From contig OZ251539.1 of NCBI GenBank assembly GCA_965243135.1, forward strand, positions 1,856,001 through 1,920,000: a stretch of DNA of 64,000 bases, given 5' to 3'. Below the pieces are notes generated by a model, which did no database searches, was not told where the DNA came from, and was given only the letters and a program-made list of their open reading frames with translations. Position numbers and translations under genes: made by a program. Positions 25,467-61,750 of the stretch are shown in pieces. This DNA is from Alphaproteobacteria bacterium. GTDB lineage: Bacteria > Pseudomonadota > Alphaproteobacteria > MPNO01 > UBA830. Every line of letters begins with the position of its first letter. The stretch's first letter is position 1.

Positions 25467-27003
25467 TCAGGCGGTCTCGAACTCGAACCCGACGATGTTG
25501 CGCTCTTCCCGTCCGAACTCCATGCCGATCAACCGGCACGCCGAGATGCCGGTACTTGTCCGCGTAGCCGCGCTCCCGCATCTGCGCCAGCGCTTGGCCT
25601 TCGTGCTGTTGGTCCACGACCTTGAACTCGTACAGATGCACGCATCCCGGACTCAGCACCGCCATGTCCAGGCGTCCGCGGGCGGTCGCTTCCTCGACCC
25701 GAACGTCCAGACCCGCCGCCGCGAAGTGCGAGTAGACGAGGGCCGCCCAATAGCCCTCGTAGAGCTCGTTCTTCCGGTGCCAGTCGTGAGGAACGCTCGC
25801 GAAGAACGCCTCGAACAGCGTCCTCACCTTCTCCGGATCGTCCTCCGCCGTCAGCCTGGCCAGCTCCGCCTGCCGCGTCGCCTCCTGCCCCGTCGCCGGC
25901 GCCATGACGCGCAGCAGCCTCTTGTTCAGGCTGAGTTTCACCTCGTAGTTCGGGTAGTCCAGCCGGTAGCGGCTGCCGCCGGCGGCGGCCTCCTCGCCGA
26001 CGATGGTCAGATAGCCGGTCTGGAACAAAAGCGCTTCGGTCGAGATGTCGTCGACGTCGAAGGTCGACAGCAGTTCGTCGTCCGCGACAAGCCCCTCAAG
26101 GGCCGGAGGCGCAACCCGGCGCCGCGACAGAAGGTCGACGAGAAAGCGCGGCGTCCCGGTCTCGAACCAGTGCGCCTTGAATTCGCGCGTTTCGAAAAGA
26201 AGCAGGATGTCGAACGGGTTGTAGACCTTGTCCGCGCCGCGCCAGTTGTAGCCGTTGTACCAGCGCCGGATTTCTTCCCGGTCCAGGCCCTCGAGTTCCG
26301 GAGCGAAGACCGCGTCCAGCTCCGCGTCCGTGTAGCCGCAGATGGCGCTGAAACGCGGATCGAGGGTGATGTCGCGCAGGTTGTTCAGGCCCGAGAAAAT
26401 GCCCGCCTGCGAGAACTTGCTCACTCCCGTCAGGAAAACGAAACGCAGCTGCTCGTCGCAGGCCTTGAGCACCCCGTACAGGCTGCGCAGAAAGTCGCGG
26501 TTGGCCCGCGCCAGTTCCCGGTCGCCGAGCGCGTCCAGAATCGGCTTGTCGTATTCGTCCACCAGAATGACCGCCTGCTGCCCGGTGCGCTCGCGCAGGG
26601 CCGCGATCAGTTCCCGGAAGCGGATCGAAACTCTGGCGCTGCCCGGCTCGATGCCGGCCAGCCTCTCCGCCGCCTTCAGTTGCGATTCCGTTTCTTCCCG
26701 AACCCCGTCCGGGTCGCCGAAATCGCCCCCGCCGAAATCCAGCCGCACGACCGGACGGCGCGCCGACCAGTCCCACCCGTCGTGAACGGCGAGGCCCCGG
26801 AACAGCTCCTCGTTTCCCTCGAACAGCTTCTGCAGCGTGTCCACCAGCAGGGTCTTGCCGAACCGGCGCGGACGCGACAGGAAATAGTACTTGCCCCCTT
26901 CGACGAGGCGGCGCACATGGTCCGTCTTGTCGACGTAGTAGCAGTCCATCCCCCGGATCTCGCGCAGGGAGGAAATGCCGGTCGGAAGCATGCGTCTCGC
27001 CAT
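25467..27003 (-). pseudogene. AAA-ATPase + PD-(D/E)XK nuclease, copy A1, frameshifted in the last ~22 codons
   Basis: YYVDKT, SRPRRFGKT, VDEYDKP, D...EFK motifs. A 5-nt deletion near 25535 (aaccggcacg vs aaccggatcggcacg in A2-A4) shifts the frame past the ancestral stop at 25467, reading to 25174. Confidence 0.8.
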
Positions 27004-27038
27004 CCGGGCAGTTTACGCCCATGGACGGCGGCGTTCAA
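27004..27038 (-). promoter_or_regulatory. Sigma70-like leaderless promoter of A1
   Basis: TTGAAC-N17-TAAACT-N6-ATG, no SD. Confidence 0.6.
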
Positions 27039-27329
27039 AGCCGCCAGCCGTCCGGACGATCAACGCGGGCCGTGCCGAAACGCTCCCGAAACCGGGCTTT
27101 CTCGCGCGCAATGAAGCCGTTCCCGTAGACATGCGGGCGGCCACCGAACGCTCCTTGCCATCGTTCGCTCCAGACCGCCGCCGCGACGCTGTCCGGCGAC
27201 CCCAACGCTCGCCGGGAAGCCAATTCCCGTGCCATCGTCGGCTGCCGCCTCTCGTTCCGTTGCCGCGCTCTGAAGTCGCCCTCCAGTCGCTGCGACCCGG
27301 ATTCCGAGAGGCGGCAAGAGCTGCCGCGG
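27004..27329. repeat. Conserved ~320-bp inter-copy spacer of array A (also 28869-29191 and 30740-31057)
   Basis: Three near-identical copies; unit period 1865/1871/1866 bp between ATGs. Confidence 0.9.
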
Positions 27330-28868
27330 TCAAGCGGTCTCGAACTCGACGATGTTGCGCTCTTCCCGGCCGAACTCCATGCCGATCAACCGGATCGGCA
27401 CGCCGAGATGCCGGTACTTGTCCGCGTAGCCGCGCTCCCGAATTTGCGCCAGCGCCCGGCCTTCCGGCCCCCCGTCCACGACCTTGAACTCGTACAGATG
27501 CACGCATCCCGGACTCAGCACAGCCATGTCCAGGCGCCCGTGGGCGGTCGCTTCCTCGACCCGAACGTCCAGACCCGCCGCCGCGAAATGCGAGTAGACG
27601 AGGGCCGCCCAATAGCCCTCGTAGAGCTCGTTCTTCCGGTGCCGGTCGTGAGGAACGCTCGCGAAAAACGCCTCGAACAGCGTCCTCACCTTCTCCGGAT
27701 TGTCCTCCGCCGTCAGCCTGGCCAGTTCCGCCTGCCGCGTCGCCTCCTGCCCCGTTGCCGGCGACATGGCGCGCAACAGCCTCTTGTTCAGGCTGAGCTT
27801 CACCTCGTAGTTCGGGTAGTCCAGCCGGTAGAGGCTCCCGCCGTCGGCGGCCTCCTCGCCGACGATGGTCAGGTAGCCGGTCTGGAACAAAAGCGCTTCG
27901 GTCGAGATGTCGTCGACGTCGAAGGTCGACAGCAAGTCGTCGTCCGCGACCATGCTCTCCAGGGCCGGGGGCGCGATCCGACGCCGCGACAGAAGGTCGA
28001 CGAGGAAGGTCGGCGTGCCGCTCCGGAACCAGTGCGCCTCGAACTGGCGACGCCGGAAAAGCAGCAGGACATCGTACGGGTTGTAGACCTTGTCCGCGCC
28101 GCGCCAGTTGTAGCCGTTGTACCAGCGGCGGACCTCCTCCCGGTCCAAGCCCTCGAGTTCCGGGGCGAAAACCGCGTCCAGCTCCGCATCCGTGTAACCG
28201 CAAATGTCCGAGAACTCCGGCTCCAGCGTGATGTCGATCAGGTTGTTCAGGCCCGAGAAAATGCCCGCCTGCGAGAATTTGCTCACCCCCGTCAGGAAAA
28301 CGAAACGCAGCTGCCTGTCGCAGGCCTTGATCGCCCCGTACAGGCTGCGCAGGAAGTCCCGATTGGCCCGCGCCAGTTCCCGGTCGCCGAGCGCGTCCAG
28401 AATAGGCTTGTCGTATTCGTCGACCAGAACGACCGCCTGCCGCCCGGTACGCTCGTGCAGGGCCTCGATCAATTCCCAGAAACGAACCGACGCCTCGACG
28501 GAGCCCGGTTCAAGGCCGGCGCGCCTCTCCGCCGCCGCCAACTGCGCTTCCACGGTTACGCGAACCCCGTCCGGGGCGCAGAAATCGCCCCCTCTGCTGA
28601 AATCCAGCCGCACGACAGGATGGCGCGCCGACCAGTCCCATTCGTCGTGTATGGCGAGACCCCGGAACGGCACCTCGCTTCCCTCGAACAGCTCCTGCAG
28701 CGTGTCCACAAACAGGGTCTTGCCGAACCGGCGCGGACGCGACAGGAAATAGTGCTTGCCGCCCTCCACGAGGCGGCGCACATGGTCCGTCTTGTCGACG
28801 TAGTAGCAATCCCTCGTCCGGATTTCCCGGAAGGAGGATATGCCGATCGGTAGCATGCGTCTCGCCAT
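27330..28868 (-). CDS. AAA-ATPase + PD-(D/E)XK nuclease, copy A2
   Basis: Intact 512-aa ORF with the same motifs. Confidence 0.92.
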   Translation of the reverse strand: MARRMLPIGISSFREIRTRDCYYVDKTDHVRRLVEGGKHYFLSRPRRFGKTLFVDTLQELFEGSEVPFRGLAIHDEWDWSARHPVVRLDFSRGGDFCAPDGVRVTVEAQLAAAERRAGLEPGSVEASVRFWELIEALHERTGRQAVVLVDEYDKPILDALGDRELARANRDFLRSLYGAIKACDRQLRFVFLTGVSKFSQAGIFSGLNNLIDITLEPEFSDICGYTDAELDAVFAPELEGLDREEVRRWYNGYNWRGADKVYNPYDVLLLFRRRQFEAHWFRSGTPTFLVDLLSRRRIAPPALESMVADDDLLSTFDVDDISTEALLFQTGYLTIVGEEAADGGSLYRLDYPNYEVKLSLNKRLLRAMSPATGQEATRQAELARLTAEDNPEKVRTLFEAFFASVPHDRHRKNELYEGYWAALVYSHFAAAGLDVRVEEATAHGRLDMAVLSPGCVHLYEFKVVDGGPEGRALAQIRERGYADKYRHLGVPIRLIGMEFGREERNIVEFETA

Positions 28869-29191: not shown

Positions 29192-30739
29192 TCAAGCGGT
29201 CTCGAACTCGAACCCGACGATGTTGCGCTCTTCCCGGCCGAACTCCATGCCGATCAACCGGATCGGCACGCCGAGATGCCGGTACTTGTCCGCGTAGCCG
29301 CGCTCCCGCATTTGCGCCAGCGCCCGGCCTTCCGGCCCCCCGTCCACGACCTTGAACTCGTACAGATGCACGCACCCCGGGCTGAGCACAGCCATGTCCA
29401 GGCGTCCGCGGGCGGTCGATTCCTCGACCCGAACGTCCAGACCCGCCGCCGCGAAGTGCGAGTAGACGAGGGCCGCCCAATAGCCTTCATAATTCGCGAG
29501 CTCGTTCTTCCGGTGCCAGTCGTGAGGAATGCTCGCGAAGAACGCCTCGAACAGAGCCCTCACTTTCTCCGGATCGTCCTCCGCCGTCAACCTGGCCAGC
29601 TCCGCCTGCCGCGTCGCGTCCTGCCTCGTTGCCGGCGCCATGGCGCGCAACAGCCTCTTGTTCAGGCTGAGCTTCACCTCGTAGTTCGGGTAGTCCAGCC
29701 GGTAGAGGCTGCCGCCATCGGCGGATTCCTCGCCGACGATGGTCAGATAGCCGGTCTGGAACAAAAGCGCTTCGGTCGAGATGTCGTCGACGTCGAAGGC
29801 CGACAGCAACTCGTCGTCCGCGACAAGCCCCTCAAGGGCCGGCGCCGCGACCCGGCGCCGCGACAGAAGGTCGACGAGGAAGGTCGGCGTGCCGGTCCGG
29901 AACCAGTGCGCCTCGAACCTGCGCGTTTCGAAGAGAAGGAGGACGTCGAACGGGTTGTAGACCTTCTCCGCGCCGCACCAGTTGTAGCCGTTGTACCAGC
30001 GCCGGACTTCTTCCCGGTCCAGGCCCTCGAGTTCCGGGGCGAAGACCGCGTCCAGTTCTTCGTCCGTGTAACCGCAAAGGGCGCCGAAACGCGGATCGAG
30101 GGTGATGTCGCGCAGGTTGTTCAGGCCCGAGAAAATGCCCGCCTGCGAGAACTTGCTCACGCCCGTCAGAAAAACGAAACGCAGTTGCTCGTCGCAAGCC
30201 TTGATCACCCCGTACAGGCTGCGCAGGAAGTCGCGGTTGGCCCGCGCCAGTTCCCGGTCGCCGAGCGCGTCCAGAATCGGCTTGTCGTATTCGTCCACCA
30301 GCACGACCGCCCGCTGCCCGGTGCGCTCGTGCAGGGCCGCGATCAGTTCCCGGAAGCGGATCGAAACTCTGGCGCTGCCCGGCTCGATGCCGGCCAGCCT
30401 CTCCGCCGCCTTCAGTTGCGATTCCGTTTCTTCCCGAACCCCGTCCGGGTCGCCGAAATCGCCCCCGCCGAAATCCAGCCGCACGACCGGATGGCGCGCC
30501 GACCAGTCCCACATGCCGTGCACGGCGAGGCCCCGGAACAACTCCTCGCTGCCCTCGAACAACTTCTGCAGCGTGTCCACCAGGAGGGTCTTGCCGAACC
30601 GGCGCGGACGCGACAGAAAATAGTAATCGCCCCCTTCGACGAGTCGGCGCACATGCTCCGTCTTGTCGACGTAGTAGCAATCCCTCGTCCGGATTTTCCG
30701 GAGGGAAGAAATGCCGATCGGAAGCATGCGTCTCGCCAT
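29192..30739 (-). CDS. AAA-ATPase + PD-(D/E)XK nuclease, copy A3
   Basis: Intact 515-aa ORF. Confidence 0.92.
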   Translation of the reverse strand: MARRMLPIGISSLRKIRTRDCYYVDKTEHVRRLVEGGDYYFLSRPRRFGKTLLVDTLQKLFEGSEELFRGLAVHGMWDWSARHPVVRLDFGGGDFGDPDGVREETESQLKAAERLAGIEPGSARVSIRFRELIAALHERTGQRAVVLVDEYDKPILDALGDRELARANRDFLRSLYGVIKACDEQLRFVFLTGVSKFSQAGIFSGLNNLRDITLDPRFGALCGYTDEELDAVFAPELEGLDREEVRRWYNGYNWCGAEKVYNPFDVLLLFETRRFEAHWFRTGTPTFLVDLLSRRRVAAPALEGLVADDELLSAFDVDDISTEALLFQTGYLTIVGEESADGGSLYRLDYPNYEVKLSLNKRLLRAMAPATRQDATRQAELARLTAEDDPEKVRALFEAFFASIPHDWHRKNELANYEGYWAALVYSHFAAAGLDVRVEESTARGRLDMAVLSPGCVHLYEFKVVDGGPEGRALAQMRERGYADKYRHLGVPIRLIGMEFGREERNIVGFEFETA

Positions 30740-31057: not shown

Positions 31058-32605
31058 TCAAGCGGTCTCGAACTCGAACCCGACGATGTTGCGCTCTTCC
31101 CGGCCGAACTCCATGCCGATCAACCGGATCGGCACGCCGAGATGCCGGTACTTGTCCGCGTAGCCGCGCTCCCGCATTTGCGCCAGCGCCCGGCCTTCCG
31201 GCCCCCCGTCCACGACCTTGAACTCGTACAAATGCACGCATCCCGGACTCAGCACGGCCATGTCCAGGCGTCCGTGGGCGGTCGCTTCCTCGACCCGAAC
31301 GTCCAGACCCGCCGCCGCGAAATGCGAGTAGACGAGGGCCGCCCAATAGCCCTCGTAATTCGCGAGCTCGTTCTTCCGGTGCCAGTCGTGAGGAACGCTC
31401 GCGAAGAACGCCTCGAACAGCGCCCTCACCTTCTCCGGATCGTCCTCCGCCGTCAGCCTGGCCAGTTCCGCCTGCCGCGTCGCCTCCCGTCCCGTCGTCG
31501 GCGCCATCGCGCGCAGCAGCCGTCTGTTCAGACTGAACTTCACCTCGTGGTTCGGGTAATCCAGCCGGTACAGGCTCTCGCCGTCGGCGGCCTCTTCGCC
31601 GACGATGGTCAGGTAGCCGGTCTGGAACAAAAGCGTCTCGATCGATATGTCGTCGACGTCGAAGGTCGACAGCAAGTCGTCGTCCGCGACCATGCTCTCC
31701 AGGGCCGGAGGCGTGACCCGGCACCGCGACAGAAGGTCGACGAGGAAGGTCGGCGTGCCGCTCCGGAACCAGTGCGCCTTGAACTCGCGCGTTTCGAAGA
31801 GAAGGAGGATATCGAACGGGTTGTAGACCCTCTCCGGACCGCGCCAGTTGTAGCCGTTGTACCAGCGCTGGACTTTCTTCCGGTCCAGGCCCTCGAGTTC
31901 CGGGGAGAAGACCGCGTCCAGATCGGCGTCCGTGTAGCCGCAGATGGCGCCGAAATGCGGATCGAGGGTGATGTCGCGCAGGTTGTTCAGGCCCGAGAAG
32001 AGGCCCGCCTGCGAGAACTTGCTCACCCCCGTCAGGAAAACGAAACGGAGATGCCTGTCGCAGTCCTTGACCGCTCCGTACAGGCTGCGCAGGAAGTCGC
32101 GGTTGGCCGTCGCCAGCTCCCGGTCGCCGAGCGCGTCCAAGATCGGCTTGTCGTATTCGTCGACCAGAACGACCGCCTGCTGCCCGGTGCGCTCGTGCAG
32201 GGCCTCGATCAATTCCCAGAAACGGTTCGACGCCTCGACAGGGCCCGGTTCGAGGCCGGCGCGCCTCTCCGCCGCCGCCAACTGTCTTTCCACGGTTTCC
32301 CGAACCCCGTCCGGAACGACGAAATTGCCCCTGCCGAAGCTGAGCCGCACGACCGGACTGCGCGCCGACCAGTCCCAATTGTCGTGCACGGCGAGGCCCC
32401 GGAACAGCTCCTCGCTTCCCTCGAACAGCTCCTGCAACGTGTCCACAAGCAGGGTCTTGCCGAACCGGCGCGGACGCGACAGGAAGTAGTACTTGCCCCT
32501 CTCGACGAGGCGGCGCACATGGTCCGTCTTGTCGACGTAGTAGCAATCCCTCGTCCGGATTTCCCTGAGAGAGGTCATCCCGATCGGAAGCATGAGTCTT
32601 TCCAT
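31058..32605 (-). CDS. AAA-ATPase + PD-(D/E)XK nuclease, copy A4
   Basis: Intact; MERLMLPIG start aligns with the paralog starts. Confidence 0.92.
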   Translation of the reverse strand: MERLMLPIGMTSLREIRTRDCYYVDKTDHVRRLVERGKYYFLSRPRRFGKTLLVDTLQELFEGSEELFRGLAVHDNWDWSARSPVVRLSFGRGNFVVPDGVRETVERQLAAAERRAGLEPGPVEASNRFWELIEALHERTGQQAVVLVDEYDKPILDALGDRELATANRDFLRSLYGAVKDCDRHLRFVFLTGVSKFSQAGLFSGLNNLRDITLDPHFGAICGYTDADLDAVFSPELEGLDRKKVQRWYNGYNWRGPERVYNPFDILLLFETREFKAHWFRSGTPTFLVDLLSRCRVTPPALESMVADDDLLSTFDVDDISIETLLFQTGYLTIVGEEAADGESLYRLDYPNHEVKFSLNRRLLRAMAPTTGREATRQAELARLTAEDDPEKVRALFEAFFASVPHDWHRKNELANYEGYWAALVYSHFAAAGLDVRVEEATAHGRLDMAVLSPGCVHLYEFKVVDGGPEGRALAQMRERGYADKYRHLGVPIRLIGMEFGREERNIVGFEFETA

Positions 32606-36145: not shown

Positions 36146-36150
36146 GCGAA

Positions 36151-36561: not shown

Positions 36562-36572
36562 TTCGCTTCTCC

Positions 36573-49889: not shown

Positions 49890-51419
49890 TCAGGCGGGCT
49901 CGCAATCGAAGCCGACGACGTTGCGCTCCTCGCGGCTGAACTCCACCCCGATCAGGTGGACCGAACGTCCGAGACGACGGTACTTGTCCGCATAGCCCTT
50001 CTCCCGCAACTGCGCGAGCGCGGTCCCCTCCCGCCCGCGCTCCACCACCTTGAACTCGAACAGGTAGACGCCGCCGCCGGCGCGGATCGCCATGTCGGCG
50101 CGCCCCCGGCTGCCGCTGTCCTCGGCCACCGGCTCGAAGCCCTCCATCAGGAAGCAGCTGTGGATGACGCTCGCGTAGTGGGCCTCGTACACCGGGCTGT
50201 TCATGTACCACTGGTGCGGGATGGCGGCGAAGACGCCGCGGAACAGGGTCCCGATGCGTTCGAAGTCGTTCGCCTCCAGCAGTTCGCCCAGCCGCAGGCG
50301 CCCCGTCTTTTTGCGGGCCTCGACCGGGAGCAGTTCTTCCAGCAAGGCCTCGCCCAGGCTCTGGCGCACCTCGAGGTTCGGGTAGTCCAGCCTGTAGCGC
50401 CCGTCCTCCTCGCCGACGATGGTGAGGTAGCCGGTCTGGAACAGAAGCGCCTCGACCGAGATATTGTCCACGTCGAAGGTCGAGAGCAGGCTCTCGCTGC
50501 CGATCATGCCGTCCAGGTCGGGAGTGGGCAGGTCGCGGCGCGCCAGCGTCTCGACCAGGAAGGTCGGCGTGCCGCTATGGAACCAGTAGTTGCCGAACTT
50601 GCGTTTGTCAAACAGCAGCAGGAGGCCGAACGGGTTGTAGACCCTCTCCGGTCCGAGCCAGTTGTAGCCGTTGTACCAGCGGCGGACCTCGTCCCGGTCC
50701 AGGCCCTCGAGTTCCGGGGCGAAGACCGCGTCCAGTTCCGCGTCCGTGCAACCGCAGATGGCGCCGTAGCGCTCGTCCAGCGTGATGTCGTTCAGGTTGT
50801 TCAGGCCCGAGAACAGGCCCGCCTTCGAGAATTTGCTCACTCCCGTCAGGAAAACGAAACGGAGATGCCTGTCGCAGGCCTTGATCACCCCGTACAGGCT
50901 GCGCAGGAAGTCGCGGTTGGCCCGCGCCAGTTCCCGGTCGCCGAGCGCGTCCAGGATCGGCTTGTCGTATTCGTCCACCAGAACCACCGCCCGCTGCCCG
51001 GTGCGTTCGTGCAGGTCCGCGATCAGTTCCCGGAAGCGGACCGAAACTCTGGCGCCGCCCGGCTCGATGCCGGCCCGCCTCTCCGCCGCCTTCAGTTGCG
51101 ATTCCGTTTCTTCCCGAACTCCGTCCGGGTCGCCGAAATCGCCCCCGCCGAAATCCAGCCGCACGACAGGATAACGTATCGACCAGTCCCACCTGCCGTG
51201 CACGGCGAGGCCCCGGAACAGCTCCTCGCTTCCCTCGAACAACTCCTGCAGCGTGTCCACCAGCAGGCTCTTGCCGAACCGGCGCGGACGCGACAGGAAA
51301 TAGTACTTGCCCCTTTCGACGAGGCGGCGCACATGGTCCGTCTTGTCGACGTAGTAGCAGTCCATCCCCCGGATCTCCCGGAGGGAGGAAAAGCCGATCG
51401 GAAGCATGCGTTGCGTCAT
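49890..51419 (-). CDS. AAA-ATPase + PD-(D/E)XK nuclease, copy B1
   Basis: Intact 509 aa; promoter TTGACG-N17-TACCCT-N6-ATG at 51426-51454. Confidence 0.92.
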   Translation of the reverse strand: MTQRMLPIGFSSLREIRGMDCYYVDKTDHVRRLVERGKYYFLSRPRRFGKSLLVDTLQELFEGSEELFRGLAVHGRWDWSIRYPVVRLDFGGGDFGDPDGVREETESQLKAAERRAGIEPGGARVSVRFRELIADLHERTGQRAVVLVDEYDKPILDALGDRELARANRDFLRSLYGVIKACDRHLRFVFLTGVSKFSKAGLFSGLNNLNDITLDERYGAICGCTDAELDAVFAPELEGLDRDEVRRWYNGYNWLGPERVYNPFGLLLLFDKRKFGNYWFHSGTPTFLVETLARRDLPTPDLDGMIGSESLLSTFDVDNISVEALLFQTGYLTIVGEEDGRYRLDYPNLEVRQSLGEALLEELLPVEARKKTGRLRLGELLEANDFERIGTLFRGVFAAIPHQWYMNSPVYEAHYASVIHSCFLMEGFEPVAEDSGSRGRADMAIRAGGGVYLFEFKVVERGREGTALAQLREKGYADKYRRLGRSVHLIGVEFSREERNVVGFDCEPA

Positions 51420-51534
51420 TCGAAGAGGGTAGGCCGCCGCGCCGGAGCCGTCAAGAAGTCGGCGGCGGCAGGCCTGTCTGCGTCCCCTGGCGCGGCAAGC
51501 AGCCGGCAGTTTCCGCGGCGGCCCGGGCGGTACG

Positions 51535-51722: not shown

Positions 51723-51938
51723 GCGGGCGGTCGGCGGGGGGTAGGCGTCGAGGCGCGCCGGCTTCACCCACCTGCTGCCCTTCCGTTCACGCGGCCTCCC
51801 CATTTCCGGCAGACGTAAACTCGTCGACGTCGAGTTCCTCCCGAAGCTCCCGGGGCCCGGCGTCCCTCCGCCGCCGGCCGCCGGGGAATTCCCCCGCTCC
51901 GCCCTCCGGCCGCCGCGACGGCGAAAACGACCGGCTCT
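51716..51938 (-). pseudogene. mutT: mutT (Nudix 8-oxo-dGTPase) relic
   Basis: Fragments EFPGG, RELREELD, YVCRKWGGRVNGREG, WVKPARLDAYP, PADRPLV across frames. Confidence 0.75.
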
Positions 51939-52118
51939 CCCGCCCTGCGGCGCGGAACCCGGAGACGCGCCCGGCCCGCGAAACCTGCAGGGAGACGCCG
52001 CCGGCCCCGAGGCGGCCTCCTCGGCCGGGCGGCCCGTCAAGCCGCGCGACGAACCGGCGGAACCGGCTGCCGTCGCGCGCGGCGTTCTGTCGCGGAGGCG
52101 GCCGTGACGGGAAGCCGT

Positions 52119-53654
52119 TCAGGCGGGCTCGCAATCGAAGCCGACGACGTTGCGCTCCTCGCGGCTGAACTCCACCCCGATCAGGTGGACCGAACGTCCG
52201 AGACGACGGTACTTGTCCGCATAGCCCTTCTCCCGCAACTGCGCGAGCGCGGTCCCCTCCCGCCCGCGCTCCACCACCTTGAACTCGAACAGGTAGACGC
52301 CGCCGCCGGCGCGGATCGCCATGTCGGCGCGCCCCCGGCTGCCGCTGTCCTCGGCCACCGGCTCGAAGCCCTCCATCAGGAAGCAGCTGTGGATGACGCT
52401 CGCGTAGTGGGCCTCGTACTTCGCGACCGGGCTGTTCATGTACCACTGGTGCGGGATGGCGGCGAAGACGCCGCGGAACAGGGTCCCGATGCGTTCGAAG
52501 TCGTTCGCCTCCAGCAGTTCGCCCAGCCGCAGGCGCCCCGTCTTCTTGCGGGCCTCGACCGGGAGCAGTTCTTCCAGCAAGGCCTCGCCCAGGCTCTGGC
52601 GCACCTCGAGGTTCGGGTAGTCCAGCCTGTAGCGCCCGTCCTCCTCGCCGACGATGGTGAGGTAGCCGGTCTGGAACAGAAGCGCCTCGACCGAGATATT
52701 GTCCACGTCGAAGGTCGAGAGCAGGCTCTCGCTGCCGATCATGCCGTCCAGGTCGGGAGTGGGCAGGTCGCGGCGCGCCAGCGTCTCGACCAGGAAGGTC
52801 GGCGTGCCGCTATGGAACCAGTAGTTGCCGAACTTGCGTTTGTCGAACAGCAGCAGGAGGCCGAACGGGTTGTAGACCCTCTCCGGTCCGAGCCAGTTGT
52901 AGCCGTTGTACCAGCGGCGGACCTCGTCCCGGTCCAGGCCCTCGAGTTCCGTGGCGAAGACCGCGTCCAGTTCCGCGTCCGTGCAACCGCAGATGGCGCC
53001 GTAGCGCTCGTCCAGCGTGATGTCGTTCAGGTTGTTCAGGCCCGAGAACAGGCCCGCCTTCGAGAATTTGCTCACTCCCGTCAGGAAAACGAAACGGAGA
53101 TGCTCGTCGCAGTCCTTGATAACCCCGTACAGGCTGCGCAGGAAGTCCCGGTTGGCCCGCGCCAGCTCCCGGTCGCCGAGCGCGTCCAGGATCGGCTTGT
53201 CGTATTCGTCCACCAGAACCACCGCCCGCTGCCCGGTGCGTTCGTGCAGGTCCGCGATCAGTTCCCGGAAGCGGACCGAAACTCTGGCGCCGCCCGGCTC
53301 GATGCCGGCCCGCCTCTCCGCCGCCTTCAGTTGCGATTCCGTTTCTTCCCGAACTCCGTCCGGGTCGCCGAAATCGCCCCCGCCGAAGCTGATCCGCACG
53401 ACCGGATGGCGTATCGACCAGTCCCACTTGCCGTGCACGGCGAGGCCCCGGAACAGCTCCTCGCTTCCCTCGAACAGCCTCTGCAGCGTGTCCACCAGCA
53501 GGGTCTTGCCGAACCGGCGCGGACGCGACAGGAAATAGTAATCGCCCTCTTCGACGAGGCGGCGCACATGGTCCGTCTTGTCGACGTAGTAGCAGTTCCT
53601 CGTCCGGATTTTCCGGAGGGAGGTCATGCCGATCGGAAGCATGCGTTTCGCCAT
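52119..53654 (-). CDS. AAA-ATPase + PD-(D/E)XK nuclease, copy B2
   Basis: Intact 511 aa; promoter TTGACG-N17-TACTCT-N6-ATG at 53661-53689. Confidence 0.92.
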   Translation of the reverse strand: MAKRMLPIGMTSLRKIRTRNCYYVDKTDHVRRLVEEGDYYFLSRPRRFGKTLLVDTLQRLFEGSEELFRGLAVHGKWDWSIRHPVVRISFGGGDFGDPDGVREETESQLKAAERRAGIEPGGARVSVRFRELIADLHERTGQRAVVLVDEYDKPILDALGDRELARANRDFLRSLYGVIKDCDEHLRFVFLTGVSKFSKAGLFSGLNNLNDITLDERYGAICGCTDAELDAVFATELEGLDRDEVRRWYNGYNWLGPERVYNPFGLLLLFDKRKFGNYWFHSGTPTFLVETLARRDLPTPDLDGMIGSESLLSTFDVDNISVEALLFQTGYLTIVGEEDGRYRLDYPNLEVRQSLGEALLEELLPVEARKKTGRLRLGELLEANDFERIGTLFRGVFAAIPHQWYMNSPVAKYEAHYASVIHSCFLMEGFEPVAEDSGSRGRADMAIRAGGGVYLFEFKVVERGREGTALAQLREKGYADKYRRLGRSVHLIGVEFSREERNVVGFDCEPA

Positions 53655-53754
53655 CGGAAGAGAGTAGGCCGCCGCGCCGGAGCCGTCAAGAAATCGGCGG
53701 CGGCAGGCGCGTCCCCTGGCGCGGCAAGCAGCCGGCAGTTTCCGCTGCGGCGGC

Positions 53755-54235
53755 GGGCGTCGGCGGGTTTTCCGGCGGCGGCCTGAAACGGAGGACGACC
53801 AACAGGGAGAGCGCCGCCGCGCCCAGACAAGAAGTCCGCCAGCCGGCGACGCCCGGAAGCGACACGACCGGAAGCTGTCGCCGCGCCCGAAACGGCGAGG
53901 TCGACCGCCAGTCCGCGCCTGCGAACGAAGTAGCGGGAAACCGCGGCCGTGACCAGCGGCAGCGAGACGGCCGCCCGCCCGCCCACAAGTCCGAACGGAA
54001 GGTAGGCGGTTCCGCGGCGAAGGCGGTGCCGCCGGCAGCGAGGGCGCCCGCGGCGAACGGCGCCCCGCAGCGGTCCCTGCCCGCCACCGGAGACCCGACG
54101 GCCACCCAAGGAGGCGGCGGCCTGCGCTCCCGTCCACCCGAGTTCCGACTGCCAAGACGGGAGAACCATGCTCACGGACGACCGCGCGCCGAAAGTGAAG
54201 GCCAGCGCGGCGAAGCAGACGACGGCCGGCGCGCG
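53755..54235 (-). pseudogene. Longer decayed MFS relic (N-terminal half)
   Basis: AVVCFAALAFTFGARSSVSMVLPSWQSELGWT, plus a segment matching 63815-64000. Confidence 0.75.
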
Positions 54236-54464
54236 TCTCGTCGGTCACCGGAGTCGCGCTCCTGCGCCGCGTCGCCCGGCGAAACGCCGGAAATCCGCCC
54301 CGGCGCCGGCCGCGAAACGGCGCGCCGCCGAAAAGGGACGGCCGCAACTCCGGAAGAGCCGCGTCACCGCGCAGCATGGCGACCAGCACTTTGTTGGTTG
54401 CCTCAACCACGCCTGACGGCGTAGCCTCCGACCTTCAGGATCGCGTAGCGCATGCGACGCCGGT

Positions 54465-54680
54465 CCTTCCGTTCACGCGGCCTCCCCATTTCCGGCAGAC
54501 GTAAAGCGGCCAGATGAAAATCGTCGGTGAGACGCGAAGGTGAACGGCGAAAGGCAGATCTCGTCGATGTCGAGTTCCTCCCGAAGCTCCCGGGCCCGGC
54601 GTCCCTCCGCCGCCGGCCGCCGGGGAATTCCCCCGCTCCGCCCTCCGGCCGCCGCGACGGCGAAAACGACCGGCTCTCCA
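54465..54680 (-). pseudogene. mutT: mutT relic (best preserved copy)
   Basis: PVVFAVAAA / RPEG..GEFPGG / RELREELDIDEICLSPFTFASH / DDFHL / PLYVCRKW. Confidence 0.85.
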
Positions 54681-54790
54681 GCCCTGCGGCGCGGAACCCG
54701 GAGACGCGCCCGGCCCGCGAAGCCTGCAGGGAGACGCCGCCGGCCCCGAAGCGGCGTTCTTTCGCGGAGGCGGCCGTGACGGGAAGCCGT

Positions 54791-56297
54791 TCAGGCGGGC
54801 TCGCAGCCGACGACGTTGCGCTCCTCGCGGCTGAACTCCACCAGGTGGACCGAACGTCCGAGACGGCGGTACTTGTCCGCGTAGCCCTTCTCCCGCAGTT
54901 GCGCGAGCGCGCCCCCCTCCCGTCCGCGCTCCACCACCTTGAACTCGAACAGGTAGACGCGCCCGCCGACGCGGATCGCCATGTCGGCGCGCCCCCGGCT
55001 GCCGCTGTCCTCGGCCACCGGCTCGAAGCCCTCCATCAGGAAGCAGCTGTGGATGACGCTCGCGTAGTGGGCCTCGTACACCGGGCTGTTCATGTACCAC
55101 TGGTGCGGGGCGAAGACGCCGCGGAACAGGGTTCCGATGCGTTCGAAGTCGTTCGCCTCCAGCAGTTCGCCCAGCCGCAGGCGCCCCGTTTTCTTGCGCG
55201 CCTCGACCGGGAGCAGTTCTCCCAGCAAGGCCTCGCCCAGGCTCTGGCGCACCTCGAGGTTCGGGTAGTCCAGCCGGTAGTGCCTGTCCTCCTCGCCGGC
55301 GATGGTGAGGTAGCCGGTCTGGAACAGAAGCGCCTCGACCGAGATATTGTCCACGTCGAAGGTCGAGAGCAGGCTCTCGCTGCCGATCATGCCGTCCAGG
55401 TCGGGAGTGGGCAGGTCGCGGCGCGCCAGCGTCTCGACCAGGAAGGTCGGCGTGCCGCTATGGAACCAGTAGTTGCCGAACTTGCGTTTGTCGAACAGCA
55501 GCAGGAGGCCGAACGGGTTGTAGACCCTCTCCGGTCCGAGCCAGTTGTAGCCGTTGTACCAGCGCCGGATTTCGTCCCGGTCCAGGCCCTCGAGTTCCGG
55601 GGCGAAGACCGCGTCCAGTTCCGCGTCCGTGCAGCCGCAGATGGCGCCGTAGCGCTCGTCCAGCGTGATGTCGTTCAGGTTGTTCAGGCCCGAGAACAGG
55701 CCCGCCTTCGAGAATTTGCTCACTCCCGTCAGGAAAACGAAACGGAGATGCTCGTCGCAGTCCTTGATAACCCCGTACAGGCTGCGCAGGAAGTCGCGGT
55801 TGGCCCGCGCCAGCTCCCGGTCGCCGAGCGCGTCCAGGATCGGCTTGTCGTATTCGTCCACCAGAACCACCGCCCGCTGCCCGGTGCGTTCGTGCAGGTC
55901 CGCGATCAGTTCCCGGAAGCGGACCGAAACTCTGGCGCCGCCCGGCGCCGGCCCGCCTCTCCGCCGCCCTCAGTTGCGATTCCGTTTCTTCCCGAACTCC
56001 GTCCGGGTCGCCGAAATCGCCCCCGCCGAAGCTGATCCGCACGACCGGATGGCGTATCGACCAGTCCCACCTGCCGTGCACGGCGAGGCCCCGGAACAAC
56101 TCCTCGCTTCCCTCGAACAGCTTCTGCAGCGTGTCCACCAGGAGGGTCTTGCCGAACCGGCGCGGACGCGACAGGAAATAGTACTTGCCCCTCTCGACGA
56201 GGCGGCGCACATGGTCCGTCTTGTCGACGTAGTAGCAGTTCATCCCCCGGATCTCCCGGAGGGAGGAAAAGCCGATCGGAAGCATGCGTTGCGTCAT
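54791..56297 (-). pseudogene. AAA-ATPase + PD-(D/E)XK nuclease, copy B3, frameshifted
   Basis: 5-nt deletion near 55946 (cccggcgccgg vs cccggctcgatgccgg) plus four in-frame 6-nt deletions; promoter retained at 56304-56332. Confidence 0.88.
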
Positions 56298-56519
56298 TCG
56301 AAGAGGGTAGGCCGCCGCGCCGGAGCCGTCAAGAAGTCGGCGGCGGCAGGCCTGTCCGCGTCCCCTGGCGCGGCAAGCAGCCGGCAGTTTCCGCTGCGGC
56401 ACGGCGGGGAAAAACGCGGGGACGAGCGAACCTGTCGCTCCGCGGAAATCCTGCCCCGCTGAGACGAGCGCGTTCGACGCGCGGCCTGGAGGCAGCGGGC
56501 GGAAGCGAACGCCGACGGC

Positions 56520-56930
56520 TGGCGCCGCCAGCAAAGGCGACGCGCGTCGACAACGATCTCGGCACCGGATTCGCGAACCTCGACGGCAAGGTCGACGCCC
56601 TCGCCGCGGAAACCAGGGCCGACGCAACGCGACGGCAAGCGCCCTCGCCAGGGAAAGCCGCGCGCCTCGAAACCACGACGATTGCCGCGGCAGGCCTCGC
56701 CGCCATACTTGCAGTTGGTCCGCCGCACCCGCGCGCGCGACGACATGCGAGTCCCGGCGGCTACATGCACAGGCATGGCAGCGCCGCACCCGCGCGCGCG
56801 ACGACATGCGCCGCAAGCGGCGAAACGCCTGAACGTCAGGCAACGGTTCCGTCGAACGAGAGCGTCGTCCGGTCGAGCGAGCGGACTTCCGCCGCCGAAA
56901 ACCATGGGCTCGTTCGAAACCGTCAACCGA
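56520..56930 (-). pseudogene. Possible relic of an AMP-binding (acyl-CoA ligase) gene N-terminus
   Basis: ARPDDALV..NR.LTFRRFAA and N.KY..E fragments; heavily frameshifted. Confidence 0.3.
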
Positions 56931-57021
56931 AGCGGCTCGCGAAACCGGAAACGGTGACGGCAGGCGTTGGCCTCCGTTTTTGAACTCCTGACCTCTCCGC
57001 AACATCAAAACGGTCGGTCAG

Positions 57022-57193
57022 CAGCAATTCCCGCTAAGGCGGCCGCATGTCCGGAAGGTGCGCCGAGAAGGCGAAATCACCAAGGGACAAGCCGCCGCGA
57101 CAAATCCCTCAGGCAAATCGCACTACCCGGAAAAATCTACGAAAAATTTTTCTGAAACCCCATATTTTCCAAGGGCCATAGCGGGAATTGCCG
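57022..57193. mobile_element. 172-bp MITE, copy 1
   Basis: TIRs CAGCAATTCCCGCTAAGGC / GCCATAGCGGGAATTGCCG; 9-bp direct repeat GTCGGTCAG at 57013-57021 and 57194-57202. Confidence 0.82.
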
Positions 57194-57239
57194 GTCGGTC
57201 AGCCACCATGCGCGTTGCGCTTCAAACTTGAAGGGGCGC

Positions 57240-57352
57240 TCCTCGACGTCGAGTTCCTCCCTGAGCTCCCGGGCCCGGCGTCTCTCCACCGCCGGCCATC
57301 GGGGAATTCCTTGCCCTGCGGCCGCAGCCACGACGAGAACGACCGGCTCTCC
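57240..57352 (-). pseudogene. mutT: mutT relic (5' part)
   Basis: EPVVLVVAAA, GKEFP, GGETP, RELREELD. Confidence 0.65.
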
Positions 57353-57560
57353 AGCCCTGCGGCGCGGAACCCGGAGACGCGCCCGACCCGCGAAGCCTGC
57401 CGGCGCGCGAGCGCCTGCAGGGAGACGCCGCCGGCCCCGAGGCGGCCTCCTCGGCCGGGCGGCCCGTCAAGCCGTGCGACGAACCGGCGGAACCGGCTGC
57501 CGCCGCGGGCCGAACCCGCGTCGGCGTTCTTTCGCGGAGGCGGTCGTGACGGGAAGCCGT

Positions 57561-58059
57561 TCAGGCGGGCTCGCAGCCGACGACGTTGCGCTCCTCGCGG
57601 CTGAACTCCACCAGGTGGACCGAACGTCCGAGACGGCGGTACTTGTCCGCGTAGCCCTTCTCCCGCAGTTGCGCGAGCGCGCCCCCCTTCCGTCCGCGCT
57701 CCACCACCTTGAACTCGAACAGGTAGACGCGCCCGCCGGCGCGGACCGCCATGTCGGCGCGCCCCCGGCTGCCGCTGTCCTCGGCCACCGGCTCAAGGCC
57801 CTCCAAGCAGCTGGACGCTCGCGTAGTGGGCCTCGTACACCGGGCTGTTCATGTACCACTGGTGCGCGGCGAAGACGCCGCGGAAACAGGGTGCGTTCGA
57901 AGTCGTTCGCCGCCAGCAGTTCGCCCAGCCGCAGGCACCCCGTCTTCTTGCGAGCCTCGACCGGGAGCAGTTCTTCCAGCAAGGCCTCGCCCAGGCTCCG
58001 GCGCACCTCGAGGTTCGGGTAGTCCAGCCTGTAGCGTCCGTCCTCCTCGCCGGGGATGG
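57561..58059 (-). pseudogene. 3' fragment of AAA/PD-(D/E)XK copy B4
   Basis: GEEDGRYRLDYPN...EFK...CEPA with multiple microdeletions; its 5' part is replaced by the intron. Confidence 0.88.
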
Positions 58060-58735
58060 GTAGAGTCGAGGACTGGCGCGTTAGCTTTAGGGTCCGGGTT
58101 CCGTCGCTTTCGCTCCGGGCCTCAGTCCGGCTCCCGTGGCCATGTTTCCAGTCCCCGCTCTCCGAACCGGACGTGCGGATTTCCCGCGCCTCCAGCCCTC
58201 GCCCACGGATGAATTGGTAGCGTTCCCAGAACGGCCGGTCTTCCGGACCCGGGAGTTGCACCGTCTCCCATTTCCGTCTGTTTTCCGCTGTCCAACCCGT
58301 CGCCGAGCCTGTTTACGCCTCGGCAACCCCAGCCTCTCGACCGGGTTCCTTCGCTTGTAACGCTTCCGGGATCTCTGACATGTAGTCGGTTGTTAGGCAT
58401 AGCCCCTTCTCCCTTGCGGCCCCTTTCCTCCGCCGGCGTTACCCGGCTTCTCCGGTACTACGGGCCTCTCCGCCACCCGCCGGCCTGCCCCTCGCGAGGT
58501 TCCGGTTGACTCGTGCGCGTCACCGACAGGGTTTCCCGTGTTGCTGCTTCCTTCATTTTCCATGCGTGCCGACCCCCGGCGGAAACGGTCGGTGCTCTTG
58601 TCGTTCTCTTCCCGACCGTCGGCGGCTTTCCCCTAACCTCAGGAGGGTCAGCTCCCGCATTGACCGTTTCGAGGCCTGGTTCACTGCTCGTTTCGGCCCG
58701 CATGTTCGCTGAGCGGCTTTCGCCGCCCTTTCCCG
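58060..58735 (-). mobile_element. Degenerate ORF-less group II intron remnant
   Basis: Minus strand D5-like GCGGGAAATCCGCACGTCCGGTTC; 3' end CGCGCCAGTCCTCGACTCTAC; D2/3-like GTAGTACCGGAGAAGCCGGGTAACGCCGGCGGAGGAAAGGGGCC; no RT ORF; no 5' GTGCG seen. Confidence 0.8.
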
Positions 58736-59520: not shown

Positions 59521-59581
59521 GCGCCTGTCGATTCTCTCGAGCGGCCCGTAACGGCCGTATCGTTTATGCGCACCGAAACGA

Positions 59582-59681
59582 GGCTACTGCAACCTCCGCA
59601 AAAACAAGTCATTCCGTCCGGGCCGTCGCGGCGGGCCGGCTTCGCGGGGGCTACCGCAACCTCCGCAAAAACAAGTCATTC
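59582..59681. repeat. Two 33-bp direct repeats separated by 34 bp
   Basis: GGCTACYGCAACCTCCGCAAAAACAAGTCATTC at 59582-59614 and 59649-59681. Confidence 0.75.
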
Positions 59682-59683
59682 AG

Positions 59684-59855
59684 CAGCAATTCCCGCCAAG
59701 GCGGCCGCATGTCCGGAAGGCGCGCCGAGAAGGCGAAATCACCAAGGGACAAGCCGCCGCGACAAATCCCTCAGGCAAATCGCACCACCCGGAAAAATCT
59801 ACGAAAAATTTTTCTGAAATCCCATATTTTCCAAGGGCCATAGTGGGAATTGCCG
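59684..59855. mobile_element. 172-bp MITE, copy 2
   Basis: Near-identical to 57022-57193 with the same right flank GTCGGTCAG; left flank GTCATTCAG. Confidence 0.82.
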
Positions 59856-59899
59856 GTCGGTCAGCCACCATGCGCGTTGCGCTTCAAACTTGAAGGGGC

Positions 59900-60012
59900 G
59901 CTCCTCGGCGTCGAGTTCCTCCCTGAGCTCCCGGGCCCGGCGTCTCTCCGCCGCCGGCCGTCGGGGAATTCCTTGCCCTGCGGCCGCCGCGACGACGAGA
60001 ACGACCGGCTCT
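59900..60012 (-). pseudogene. mutT: mutT relic (5' part)
   Basis: EPVVLVVAAA, RPQGKEFP, RELREELD. Confidence 0.65.
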
Positions 60013-60211
60013 CCAGCCCTGCGGCGCGGAACCCGGAGACGCGCCCGACCCGCGAAGCCTGCCGGCGCGCGAGCGCCTGCAGGGAACCGTCGTCGGCCGC
60101 GGCGGCCTCCTCGGCCGGGCGGCCCGTCAAGCCGCGCGACGAACCGGCTCCCGCCGCAGGCCGAACCGCGGGCGGCGTTCTTTCGCGGAGGCGGCCGTGA
60201 CGGGAAACCGT

Positions 60212-61750
60212 TCAGGCGGGCTCGCAATCGAACCCGACGACGTTGCGCTCCTCGCGGCTGAACTCCACCCCGATCAGGTGGACCGAACGCCCGAGACGGC
60301 GGTACTTGTCCGCATAGCCCTTCTCCCGCAACTGCGCGAGCGCGATCCCCTCCCGCCCGCGCTCCACCACCTTGAACTCGAACAGGTAGACGCGCCCGCC
60401 GGCGCGGACCGCCATGTCGGCGCGCCCCCGGCTGCCGCTGTCCTCGGCCACCGGCTCGAGGCCCTCCATCAGGAAGCAGCTGTGGATGACGCTCGCGTAG
60501 TGGGCCTCGTACTTCGCGACGGGGTTGTTCATGTACCACTGGTGCGGGATGGCGGCGAAGACGCCGCGGAACAGGGTCTCGACGCGCTTGAAGTCGTTCG
60601 CCGCCAGCAATTCGCCCAGCCGCAGGTTCTCCGTCTCCTCGCGGGCCTCGTCCGGGAGCAGTTCTTCCAGCAAGGCCTCGCCCAGGCTCTGGCGCACCTC
60701 GAGGTTCGGGTAGCCCAGCCGGTAGCGCCCGCCCTCTTCGCCGACGATGGTGAGGTAGCCGGTCTGGAACAGAAGCGCCTCGACCGAGATCCTGTCCACG
60801 TCGAAGGTCGAGAGCAGGCTCTCGCTGCCGATCATGCCGTCCAGGCGGGGAGTGGGCAGGTTGCGGCGCGCCAGCGTCTCGACCAGAAAGGTCGGCGTGC
60901 CGCTCTCGAACCAGTACGGGCGGAACTCGCGCCGTTGAAACAGCAGCAGGAGGCCGAACGGGTTGTAGACCCTCTCCGGCCCGCGCCAGTTGTAGCCATT
61001 GTACCAGCGGCGGATCTCGTCCCGGTCCAGGCCCTCGAGTTCCGGGGCGAAGACCGCGTCCAGCTCCGCATCCGTGCAGCCGCAAATATCCGAGAACTCC
61101 GGCGCCAGCGTGATGTCGTTCAGGTTGTTCAGGCCCGAGAACAGGCCCGCCTTCGAGAATTTGCTCACTCCCGTCAGGAAAACGAAACGGAGATGCCTGT
61201 CGCACTCCTTGATAACCCCGTACAGGCTGCGCAGGAAGTCCCGGTTGGCCCGCGCCAGCTCCCGGTCGCCGAGCGCGTCCAGAATCGGCTTGTCGTATTC
61301 GTCCACCAGAACCACCGCCCGCTGCCCGGTGCGTTCGTGCAGGTCCGCGATCAGTTCCCGGAAGCGGACCGAAACTCTGGCGCCGCCCGGCTCGATGCCG
61401 GCCCGCCTCTCCGCCGCCTTCAGTTGCGATTCCGTTTCTTCCCGAACTCCGTCCGGGTCGCCGAAATCGCCCCCGCCGAAGCCGATCCGCACGACCGGAT
61501 GGCGCGTCGACCAGTCCCACCTGCCGTGCACGGCGAGGCCCCGGAACAGCTCCTCGCTTCCTTCGAACAGCTCCTGCAGCGTGTCCACCAGCAGGGTCTT
61601 GCCGAACCGGCGCGGACGCGACAGGAAATAATATTGACCGCCCTCGACAAGGCGGCGGACATGGTCCGTCTTGTCGACGTAGTAGCAGTCCATCTCTCCC
61701 CGGATTTTCCGGAGGGAGGTCAAGCCGATCGGAAGCATGCGTTTCGCCAT
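60212..61750 (-). CDS. AAA-ATPase + PD-(D/E)XK nuclease, copy B5
   Basis: Intact 512 aa; promoter TTGACG-N17-TACTCT-N6-ATG at 61757-61785. Confidence 0.92.
   Translation of the reverse strand: MAKRMLPIGLTSLRKIRGEMDCYYVDKTDHVRRLVEGGQYYFLSRPRRFGKTLLVDTLQELFEGSEELFRGLAVHGRWDWSTRHPVVRIGFGGGDFGDPDGVREETESQLKAAERRAGIEPGGARVSVRFRELIADLHERTGQRAVVLVDEYDKPILDALGDRELARANRDFLRSLYGVIKECDRHLRFVFLTGVSKFSKAGLFSGLNNLNDITLAPEFSDICGCTDAELDAVFAPELEGLDRDEIRRWYNGYNWRGPERVYNPFGLLLLFQRREFRPYWFESGTPTFLVETLARRNLPTPRLDGMIGSESLLSTFDVDRISVEALLFQTGYLTIVGEEGGRYRLGYPNLEVRQSLGEALLEELLPDEAREETENLRLGELLAANDFKRVETLFRGVFAAIPHQWYMNNPVAKYEAHYASVIHSCFLMEGLEPVAEDSGSRGRADMAVRAGGRVYLFEFKVVERGREGIALAQLREKGYADKYRRLGRSVHLIGVEFSREERNVVGFDCEPA

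Follow-up and report, generated by a model that had tools for sequence, protein, structure and literature searches.

Mosaic structure in a genome-wide family of DUF1703 paralogs in an alphaproteobacterium

We examined a 64,000-nt stretch of DNA (the window; positions 1,856,001 to 1,920,000 of the single 6.10-Mb contig OZ251539.1, assembly GCA_965243135.1) from an alphaproteobacterium of the GTDB group UBA830. Nine members of one gene family were identified in it by tblastn with copy A2 as the query, in two arrays, A (A1 to A4) and B (B1 to B5); the genome as a whole holds 141 loci of the family (239 high-scoring segment pairs, HSPs). The proteins combine the domains PF09820 (AAA-ATPase_like) and PF08011 (PDDEXK_9), the pair that marks the family formerly called DUF1703. 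We found that the copies are mosaics of one another, a pattern that is real and statistically strong at the level of the family, and that the family falls into three subfamilies by its 3′ half alone, across which the 5′ half of the gene is shuffled. It is likely, in our judgment, that the roughly 140 paralogs exchange short pieces of DNA by ordinary homology-dependent recombination, that is, by gene conversion.

Motif patterns and recombination tests in the window copies

An earlier note on the window, made from the sequence alone, had listed ten motif patterns that assort independently of copy position and had proposed that the paralogs are mosaics formed by exchange. A six-frame regular-expression search of each copy located all ten patterns in exactly the copies that had been named, with every motif on the minus strand. 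The G+C content of the window is 60-69%, and the long open reading frames (ORFs) on the plus strand of the studied region are antisense artefacts of this high G+C; they were dropped as candidate genes. The motif PEFSDICG had been described as restricted to A2 and B5. This is correct inside the window; in the family at large, however, it is the commonest allele (39 of 96 intact copies) and is therefore uninformative about exchange between A2 and B5.

Nucleotide identity was 89.2-93.5% among the A copies, 92.9-97.6% among the B copies and 75.3-79.1% between the two arrays. In 90-nt windows A1 and B1 reached 96-98% identity, and A2 and B5 91-93%. The branch between A and B varied in length along the gene, from about 0.04 substitutions per site over the first 480 nt to 0.46-0.77 over the last 800 nt.

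Exchange between paralogs was supported by recombination tests on the eight alignable window copies. The pairwise homoplasy index (PHI) was 0.188 as compared to 0.244 (standard deviation 0.004) in permuted data, and none of 1000 permutations was as low; for array B alone, a single permutation in 1000 was. The four-gamete test was failed by 24% of the informative site pairs. In a GENECONV-like test of the longest identical runs, p was ≤0.05 in 26 of the 28 pairs of copies and ≤0.0018, the Bonferroni threshold, in 18. This longest-run test is sensitive to rate heterogeneity along the gene, and several of the significant runs between A and B are the same 24-nt block (alignment positions 312-335). 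The decisive signal of recombination comes from the whole family rather than from these eight copies.

Individual tracts point to recent events. Copy A3 and a copy of subfamily 1 located 1.19 Mb away are 79.2% identical overall and share an exact tract of 195 nt (alignment positions 228-422) in the most variable region of the gene. B1 and B2 are separated by 44 differences; 28 of these are clustered in the first 267 nt, while the 3′ part is nearly identical. For one cluster, at positions 4-58, each of the two versions has an exact match in other copies. Such matches are in keeping with import, not with new mutation, and they are not proof of exchange today. The exchange had been called ongoing in the earlier note; that is plausible but was not borne out as stated, and the 195-nt tract is the best evidence for it.

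A copying model in which each switch of donor costs 5 mismatches described the window copies as 2-7 segments and reduced mismatches by 43-56% relative to the best single donor. Across the family the median was 4 segments per copy, and 19% of segments came from another subfamily. Contrary to what had been supposed, the partners are not confined to the two arrays; exchange is among 141 loci throughout the genome. The best-matching segments lie mostly outside the window: the nearest relative of a 90-nt window from one of our nine copies is usually elsewhere in the genome, and often in another major clade of the whole-gene tree.

Shuffling of the 5′ half across subfamilies defined by the 3′ half

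Of the 141 loci, 96 are full-length in one HSP and free of stop codons. These intact copies are 63-88% identical to A2, all but one start with ATG (95 of 96), and all 96 encode different proteins. Clustering of the 3′ half separated them into three subfamilies of 50, 33 and 13 copies, the B copies belonging to the first and the A copies to the third. Copies of one subfamily were at a mean distance of 0.078 in the 3′ half and 0.131 in the 5′ half; for copies of different subfamilies the means were 0.312 and 0.147.

None of 500 permutations gave a PHI as low as that of the whole family, of either half of the gene, or of the 3′ half in subfamily 1 or 3; for the 3′ half in subfamily 2, 19 of 500 did. 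Linkage decayed with distance: mean r2 was 0.352 for sites ≤10 nt apart and 0.019-0.024 for sites >800 nt apart. The observed correlation between r2 and distance (-0.33) was reached by none of 500 permutations.

We compared distance matrices from successive 150-nt segments. Within the first 600 nt, contiguous segments correlated at 0.11-0.53 with each other and at ≤0.25 with segments beyond 750 nt, while randomly interleaved subsets of 150 sites from the same 600 nt correlated at 0.70-0.77; the low values for contiguous segments are therefore not noise. In contrast, contiguous segments between 750 and 1500 nt correlated at 0.78-0.98. Inside the largest subfamily, contiguous segments along the whole gene gave -0.08 to 0.47 as compared to 0.23-0.71 for interleaved controls.

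The approximately unbiased (AU) test of tree topologies gave a similar result in a set of 36 of the 96 intact copies, drawn as 12 from each subfamily without A1. Every tree taken from another quarter of the gene, or from the gene as a whole, was rejected by the quarter under test (16 of 16 comparisons, p-AU ≤ 4.7e-4). The subfamily label required 18 and 16 changes on the trees of the two 5′ quarters but only 2 on each 3′ quarter tree. Exact runs of at least 30 nt were present in 99.5% of between-subfamily pairs in the 5′ half and in 27.6% in the 3′ half. The abundance of long identical runs in the half that is shuffled is as expected of a homology-dependent process.

Domains and predicted fold of the protein

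In A2, B5 and B2, PF09820 scored 196-207 bits (cut-off 26.1) and PF08011, at residues ~412-508, scored 56-60 bits (cut-off 25.5). The Walker A motif RRFGK[ST] and the Walker B motif [VIL]DEYD (DEYD) are present in 96 of 96 intact copies, and D447, E460 and K462 (A2 numbering) are nearly invariant in an alignment of 120 sequences. From the same alignment, AlphaFold2 produced a model of A2 with a mean predicted local distance difference test score (pLDDT) of 94.1 and a predicted template modelling score (pTM) of 0.91.

The best Foldseek match of this model was Cdc6/Orc1 (E 3.9e-4), followed by Apaf-1/Dark, Avs3 and RdrA. Structure alignment (VIA-align) placed model residues 4-362 on the fold of NB-ARC/STAND-type NTPases (STAND, signal transduction ATPases with numerous domains) with a winged helix. 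The closest structures were PAB2304 (2qen; Z 15.8, root-mean-square deviation 3.8, 281 residues aligned) and SSO1545 (2fna; Z 15.3). Plant resistosomes (Z 12.7-13.1), CED-4 (12.7), ORC2 (12.1), BrxC (11.7) and Avs3 (11.4) came next. Residues 302-512 aligned with the nuclease domains of CidB and CinB (Z 11.3 and 10.8). The modeled protein would thus be a P-loop ATPase like those of the STAND and origin recognition complex (ORC) groups, whose middle part resembles a winged helix and whose C terminus is a PD-(D/E)XK nuclease.

No C-terminal sensor made of leucine-rich repeats (LRR), tetratricopeptide repeats (TPR) or WD40 repeats was present: the 512-residue protein ends with the nuclease domain and its model contains no repeats. 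No family of PADLOC-DB 2.0 matched A2 or B5 at E ≤ 0.01, no NCBIfam model matched, and a sequence search of the PDB returned nothing below E 0.65. Fold similarity alone shows no function. DUF1703 proteins themselves are widespread (18,004 representative clusters at E ≤ 0.001, HMMER).

Variable blocks are under relaxed constraint

The ratio of nonsynonymous to synonymous diversity (piN/piS) was calculated pairwise for 95 copies (A1 dropped). It was 0.58 overall, 0.18-0.26 in the conserved stretches, and 0.88-1.21 around codons 91-110, 271-310 and 351-390. Counting on local trees of 40 codons each gave a dN/dS of 0.33 overall and 0.45-0.66 in the variable blocks. At 3 of 513 sites dN exceeded dS (p < 0.05), while 207 sites were under purifying selection. 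There is thus no excess of amino-acid change by site, and these data indicate that the variable blocks are under relaxed constraint, not clearly under positive selection. The earlier note had spoken of a diversification system, a term that implies selection or dedicated machinery; we found neither.

Placed on the secondary structure of the A2 model, the most variable block (codons 89-136) comprises a loop and the helices 101-116 and 126-141, between the strand 85-89 and the Walker B strand 145-150. ORC/Cdc6-type initiators have a DNA-contacting insert at that position of the AAA+ fold. The variable block may be the counterpart of this initiator-specific insert, in position along the fold rather than by residue-level alignment.

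Probable gene conversion and its alternatives

How might the mosaics have arisen? The process that we favor would be non-reciprocal gene conversion, acting on tandem as well as dispersed copies and probably joined by unequal crossing-over within the arrays. The general recombination machinery of the host, presumably of the RecA type, would carry out the exchange, and no dedicated enzyme would be needed. In agreement with the earlier note, none was seen in the window: Pfam detected no recombinase, integrase or reverse transcriptase (RT) among the 34 other ORFs scanned, and none of the six matches to PF00078 in the genome lies there. Exchange would follow sequence identity. The 5′ 750 nt (the ATPase half), where all copies share long identical runs, would be shuffled family-wide; in the 3′ 750 nt the three subfamilies are about 31% apart, and exchange would therefore stay inside each subfamily. 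As an outcome, every intact copy would be a unique combination drawn from a limited stock of block alleles.

Several of our observations speak against this explanation or narrow it. PHI was not significant for array A alone (77 of 1000 permutations as low). Moreover, although a single tree failed in the 36-copy set, the whole-gene maximum-likelihood (ML) tree of the eight window copies was rejected by none of five segments (lowest p-AU 0.055). The topological information in eight sequences that form two tight groups is small, and the ML trees of their segments rejected one another in 11 of 20 AU tests. The link between identity and recombination is partly circular, since conversion itself creates identical runs. 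Proximity had a weak effect, within-subfamily distance in the 5′ half being 0.117 for copies <5 kb apart and 0.128 for copies >500 kb apart, which would be unusual if simple tandem misalignment dominated. The piN/piS values, 0.58 overall and 0.9-1.2 in three blocks, are high for a bacterial enzyme and leave room for selection for diversity. Finally, public short-read contigs from four runs, mostly ~80-390 nt long, neither phase the copies nor show new mosaics.

One alternative keeps homologous recombination as the mechanics but holds that the shuffling of blocks has been retained by selection, the family being a repertoire of immune or conflict-type, STAND-like ATPase-nucleases that gains new targets in this way. 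The fold matches to NB-ARC/STAND and ORC-type NTPases and to the CidB/CinB nuclease domains speak for it. So do the difference of all 96 intact copies from one another, the retention of the ATPase motifs in each of them, the location of the most variable block in a loop and two helices before the Walker B strand, the high piN/piS of three blocks, and a lineage-specific expansion (1-6 matches in each of six genomes, among 200 others of the phylum). On the other hand, dN/dS is 0.45-0.66 even in the variable blocks and just 3 of 513 sites have dN>dS; PADLOC and NCBIfam gave no match; the sensor repeat domain is absent; the neighboring genes are metabolic rather than those of defence islands; and the available part of one report on this family (PMC6387759) states the function of DUF1703 proteins as unknown. 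A selected role in diversification is thus possible, but we consider this alternative unlikely. It could be speculated further that the ~140 copies are a germline-encoded repertoire of sensors resembling the nucleotide-binding, leucine-rich-repeat (NLR) proteins. In such a repertoire the two-helix insert would set specificity, the 3′ subfamilies would be three effector types and 5′ conversion would itself be selected; in this extended form the proposal is doubtful.

Another possibility is that the mosaics were produced by assembly or polishing, where short reads from one paralog, placed on the wrong copy, would paint false patches of 100-300 nt. The short-read contigs of the four public runs do break into pieces of 100-250 nt across the array, and each protein of the genome that was listed among the homologs occurs on one contig only, with no independent assembly containing an identical copy. 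Several results speak against this explanation. The 96 copies keep open frames and ATPase motifs, and the 5′ half is almost completely scrambled while the 3′ half is cleanly structured by subfamily, a boundary that polishing errors would ignore. The same pattern occurs in a separate genome of the genus (G004), where contiguous segments correlated at 0.51 on average as compared to 0.95 for interleaved sites, and the 250-500-nt segment correlated with the 3′ half at 0.11-0.14 (13 of 19 full-length copies, six having been lost to a coordinate filter). Recombination of DUF1703 paralogs has also been reported independently in Cardinium (PMC6387759, available part). We regard an artefact as very unlikely.

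Could the family drive its own exchange? Each copy encodes a PD-(D/E)XK nuclease, and cleavage of paralogs followed by repair could promote conversion and spread in the manner of homing. Such self-inflicted breaks would account for the scatter of copies over many loci when the window ORFs scanned include no transposase domain, and for exchange that is nearly independent of genomic distance; however, there is no evidence of a target site, and sequence identity alone explains the contrast between the 5′ and 3′ halves. The chances of this seem to us slight indeed. Equally, shared motifs could be retained ancestral or convergent states with no exchange at all, as the majority status of alleles such as PEFSDICG would allow. 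Against this, the exact nucleotide tracts include synonymous sites, linkage decays with distance, interleaved-site controls differ from contiguous segments, and a single tree was rejected in every one of the 16 AU comparisons, so that this last explanation is hardly tenable.

Comparison with known systems

Recombination among DUF1703 paralogs has already been published for Cardinium hertigii cCpun, and the present family is a much larger case of the same kind. According to the available part of that account, the Cardinium genome has 25 DUF1703 paralogs with a mean amino-acid identity of ~39%, signal peptides predicted in 10 of 25, a reticulate network, recombination detected by RDP4 and PHI, and no homogenisation (Siozios et al. 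2019, PMC6387759). Both genomes thus hold many paralogs of the same two-domain family with intragenic recombination. They differ in scale and divergence, with 141 loci, 96 of them intact, and 63-88% identity to A2 in our genome, and in biology, Cardinium being an insect endosymbiont of another phylum. The half-gene structure, with a 5′ part shared family-wide and three 3′ subfamilies, does not appear in the available part of the Cardinium account, which also mentions a PF09820-type gene in connection with a Medea element of Tribolium (PMC6387759). We found no expansion of comparable size in the literature, subscription journals and supplements being outside our coverage. The DUF1703 proteins have expanded independently in symbionts.

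In bacterial multigene families, interlocus gene conversion reportedly occurs between pairs of PE_PGRS genes. As in our family, this is homology-dependent, non-reciprocal exchange between paralogs that gives mosaics without a dedicated enzyme. Interlocus conversion usually homogenises a few copies (concerted evolution); here, in contrast, about a hundred copies stay distinct and behave as a recombining population. PF09820-type genes have reportedly been acquired horizontally by insects and lie near selfish elements, a preprint on a mealybug B chromosome being another case besides the Medea element.

The cassette systems pilE/pilS, vlsE and msp2 pair one expression site with silent, promoterless cassettes and vary surface proteins. 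Segmental conversion and combinatorial variants from a stock of related sequences are common to these systems and our family. The layout is not, because the family has 96 full-length open copies, 95 with ATG starts, each copy has its own start codon and a conserved upstream element (see below), and the fold matches intracellular NTPases and nuclease domains. In diversity-generating retroelements (DGRs), an RT is encoded beside the variable gene and variation falls at the adenines of the template repeat. Our family resembles them in the localized hypervariability of an otherwise conserved protein, but the window has no RT, the variants are discrete alleles common to several copies, and adenine bias is absent (the major allele is A at 93 of 578 polymorphic as compared to 103 of 510 invariant sites).

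With the STAND/NB-ARC and ORC-type NTPases our proteins share the fold of residues 4-362 (Z 11.4-15.8) and the joining of an NTPase switch to a nuclease effector, and with the CidB/CinB nuclease domains the fold of residues 302-512 (Z 10.8-11.3). Unlike STAND and NLR proteins they have no LRR, TPR or WD sensor, identity is only 7-16%, and PADLOC gave no match. NLR genes sit in recombining clusters, and if the repertoire interpretation were true, the family would be a bacterial counterpart of these. Whatever the role, about a hundred intact and all-different copies in one cell form a panel for asking what the variable blocks recognise. The map of natural recombination divides the gene into an ATPase half that is exchanged freely and a nuclease half with three lineages, and the family is a clean case for measuring how sequence identity limits conversion between bacterial paralogs.

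Layout of the arrays and the upstream element

All nine window copies are on the minus strand, and the intact ones encode 509-515 amino acids. The starts of A1 to A4 are spaced by 1865-1871 nt. A1 (25470..27003), a copy of 3′ subfamily 3 delimited by tblastn, translation and an indel check, has a 5-nt deletion near 25536 that shifts the frame after ~codon 489; the open frame continues to 25174. A2 (27330..28868; 512 amino acids, PF09820 at residues 7-204 and PF08011 at 416-508), A3 (29192..30739; 515 amino acids) and A4 (31058..32605; 515 amino acids) are intact. In array B, the intact copies are B1 (49890..51419; 509 amino acids, 3′ subfamily 1), B2 (52119..53654; 511 amino acids) and B5 (60212..61750; 512 amino acids). 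B3 (54791..56297) is broken by a 5-nt deletion near 55946 (~codon 119), and B4 (57564..58111) is a 3′ remnant, from ~codon 317 to the end with frame breaks, which is probably the 3′ exon of a copy invaded by an intron.

B3, B4 and the putative intron remnant lie in a duplicated segment of 5.1 kb (53742..58731), recognized by megablast and paired loci. Its duplicate, 97.1% identical, is ~10 kb downstream at genome positions 1,919,793-1,924,866, starting just inside the end of the window and lying mostly beyond it. The B3 frameshift was already present in this segmental duplication. Elsewhere in the genome many loci are also in head-to-tail arrays, for example at 1.257-1.291 Mb and 1.906-1.953 Mb. 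Fragments or frameshifted copies make up 45 of the 141 loci, and the nuclease Asp is missing in at least 2 of the 96 intact copies; the family undergoes birth and death besides exchange. Third-codon G+C was 0.897 in the 96 intact copies (5′ half 0.870, 3′ half 0.924) as compared to 0.810 in 21 neighboring window genes with Pfam hits. GC-biased gene conversion is a possible cause, yet it is the more recombining 5′ half that has the lower value.

Homology between copies fades ~50 nt upstream and ~100 nt downstream of the gene. A conserved upstream element of 35-50 nt is common to most copies (median 68 partners). In most of them it consists of TTGACG at -35..-30 and TAC(T/C)CT at -12..-7 from the A of the ATG, 17 nt apart; in B5 (element at 61757..61785, minus strand) the second hexamer is TACTCT. 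Variants are TTGACA with TATTCT in the A4 type (in A4 itself, 17 nt between the hexamers and 6 nt before the ATG) and TTGAAC with TAAACT in A1-A3. A consensus promoter scan of 49500-62200 yielded no sites, the conserved element falling below its threshold. Judging by this layout, the element may be a promoter whose transcripts begin at the start codon itself. The hexamers leave no room for a ribosome-binding site, which suggests leaderless mRNAs. The public gene calls begin four codons downstream, at a second ATG (508 as compared to 512 amino acids for A2).

Neighboring genes and introns

The 34 other ORFs scanned in the window have metabolic or transport domains by Pfam, with a few lacking a match; among them are Suf Fe-S assembly, a TRAP transporter, Rieske oxygenases, a hydantoinase and an acyl-CoA synthetase. 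Between B5 and the putative intron remnant, an ORF of 279 codons at 58681-59520 (minus strand) covers no more of the 377-position ArgJ profile than positions 3-230 and looks like a truncated argJ. In a comparison aimed at a site empty of the family, the flanking GMC oxidoreductase gene had best matches of only 48-49% identity in four congeners and is itself multi-copy; it did not identify an orthologous locus.

A probable ORF-less group II intron, truncated at its 5′ end, lies directly upstream of B4 (58098..58731, minus strand). By blastn it corresponds to positions 121-823 of an 835-nt element (86% identity over 704 nt). Rfam had no match at the gathering threshold anywhere in the window; below it, the remnant matched RF02005 (E 1.2e-6, 31.2 bits against a gathering score of 49) and RF00029 (E 0.0054, 28.1 against 40). 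The matching element in locus L035 (1131-1972) scored 77.3 and 51.4 bits, and full copies above the gathering scores are present in L035-L037. The ORF-less element of ~835 nt interrupts several family copies at the same site, after LLFQTGYL at ~codon 335, and in the family copy at genome positions 2,665,292-2,668,827 it is longer and has matches to reverse transcriptase. With its many copies, the family seems to offer a set of homing sites to this intron. Co-conversion with the intron as the driver of exchange was considered and rejected: the site is in the subfamily-structured 3′ part, and the element is present in a minority of the 141 loci.

Relatives and public reads

Among 30 relatives, four carry the family. 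The congener G004 has 23 matches, G030 has 9, G002 has 9 that are fragmentary and G003 has a single one; two of seven G030 copies passed the coordinate filter, too few for statistics. Twenty public sequencing runs contained some of the words sampled, none more than half of them (best share 0.50); none is recorded as RNA, and they are uninformative on expression. Short-read assemblies will shatter or mis-join a family of this kind. The unique flank of array A (24800-25492) was matched exactly in two public runs, over 693 nt in one and 233 nt in the other, which is labelled as a sponge metagenome, and with 9 differences in 296 positions in a third. The organism or its close relatives may live in sponges.

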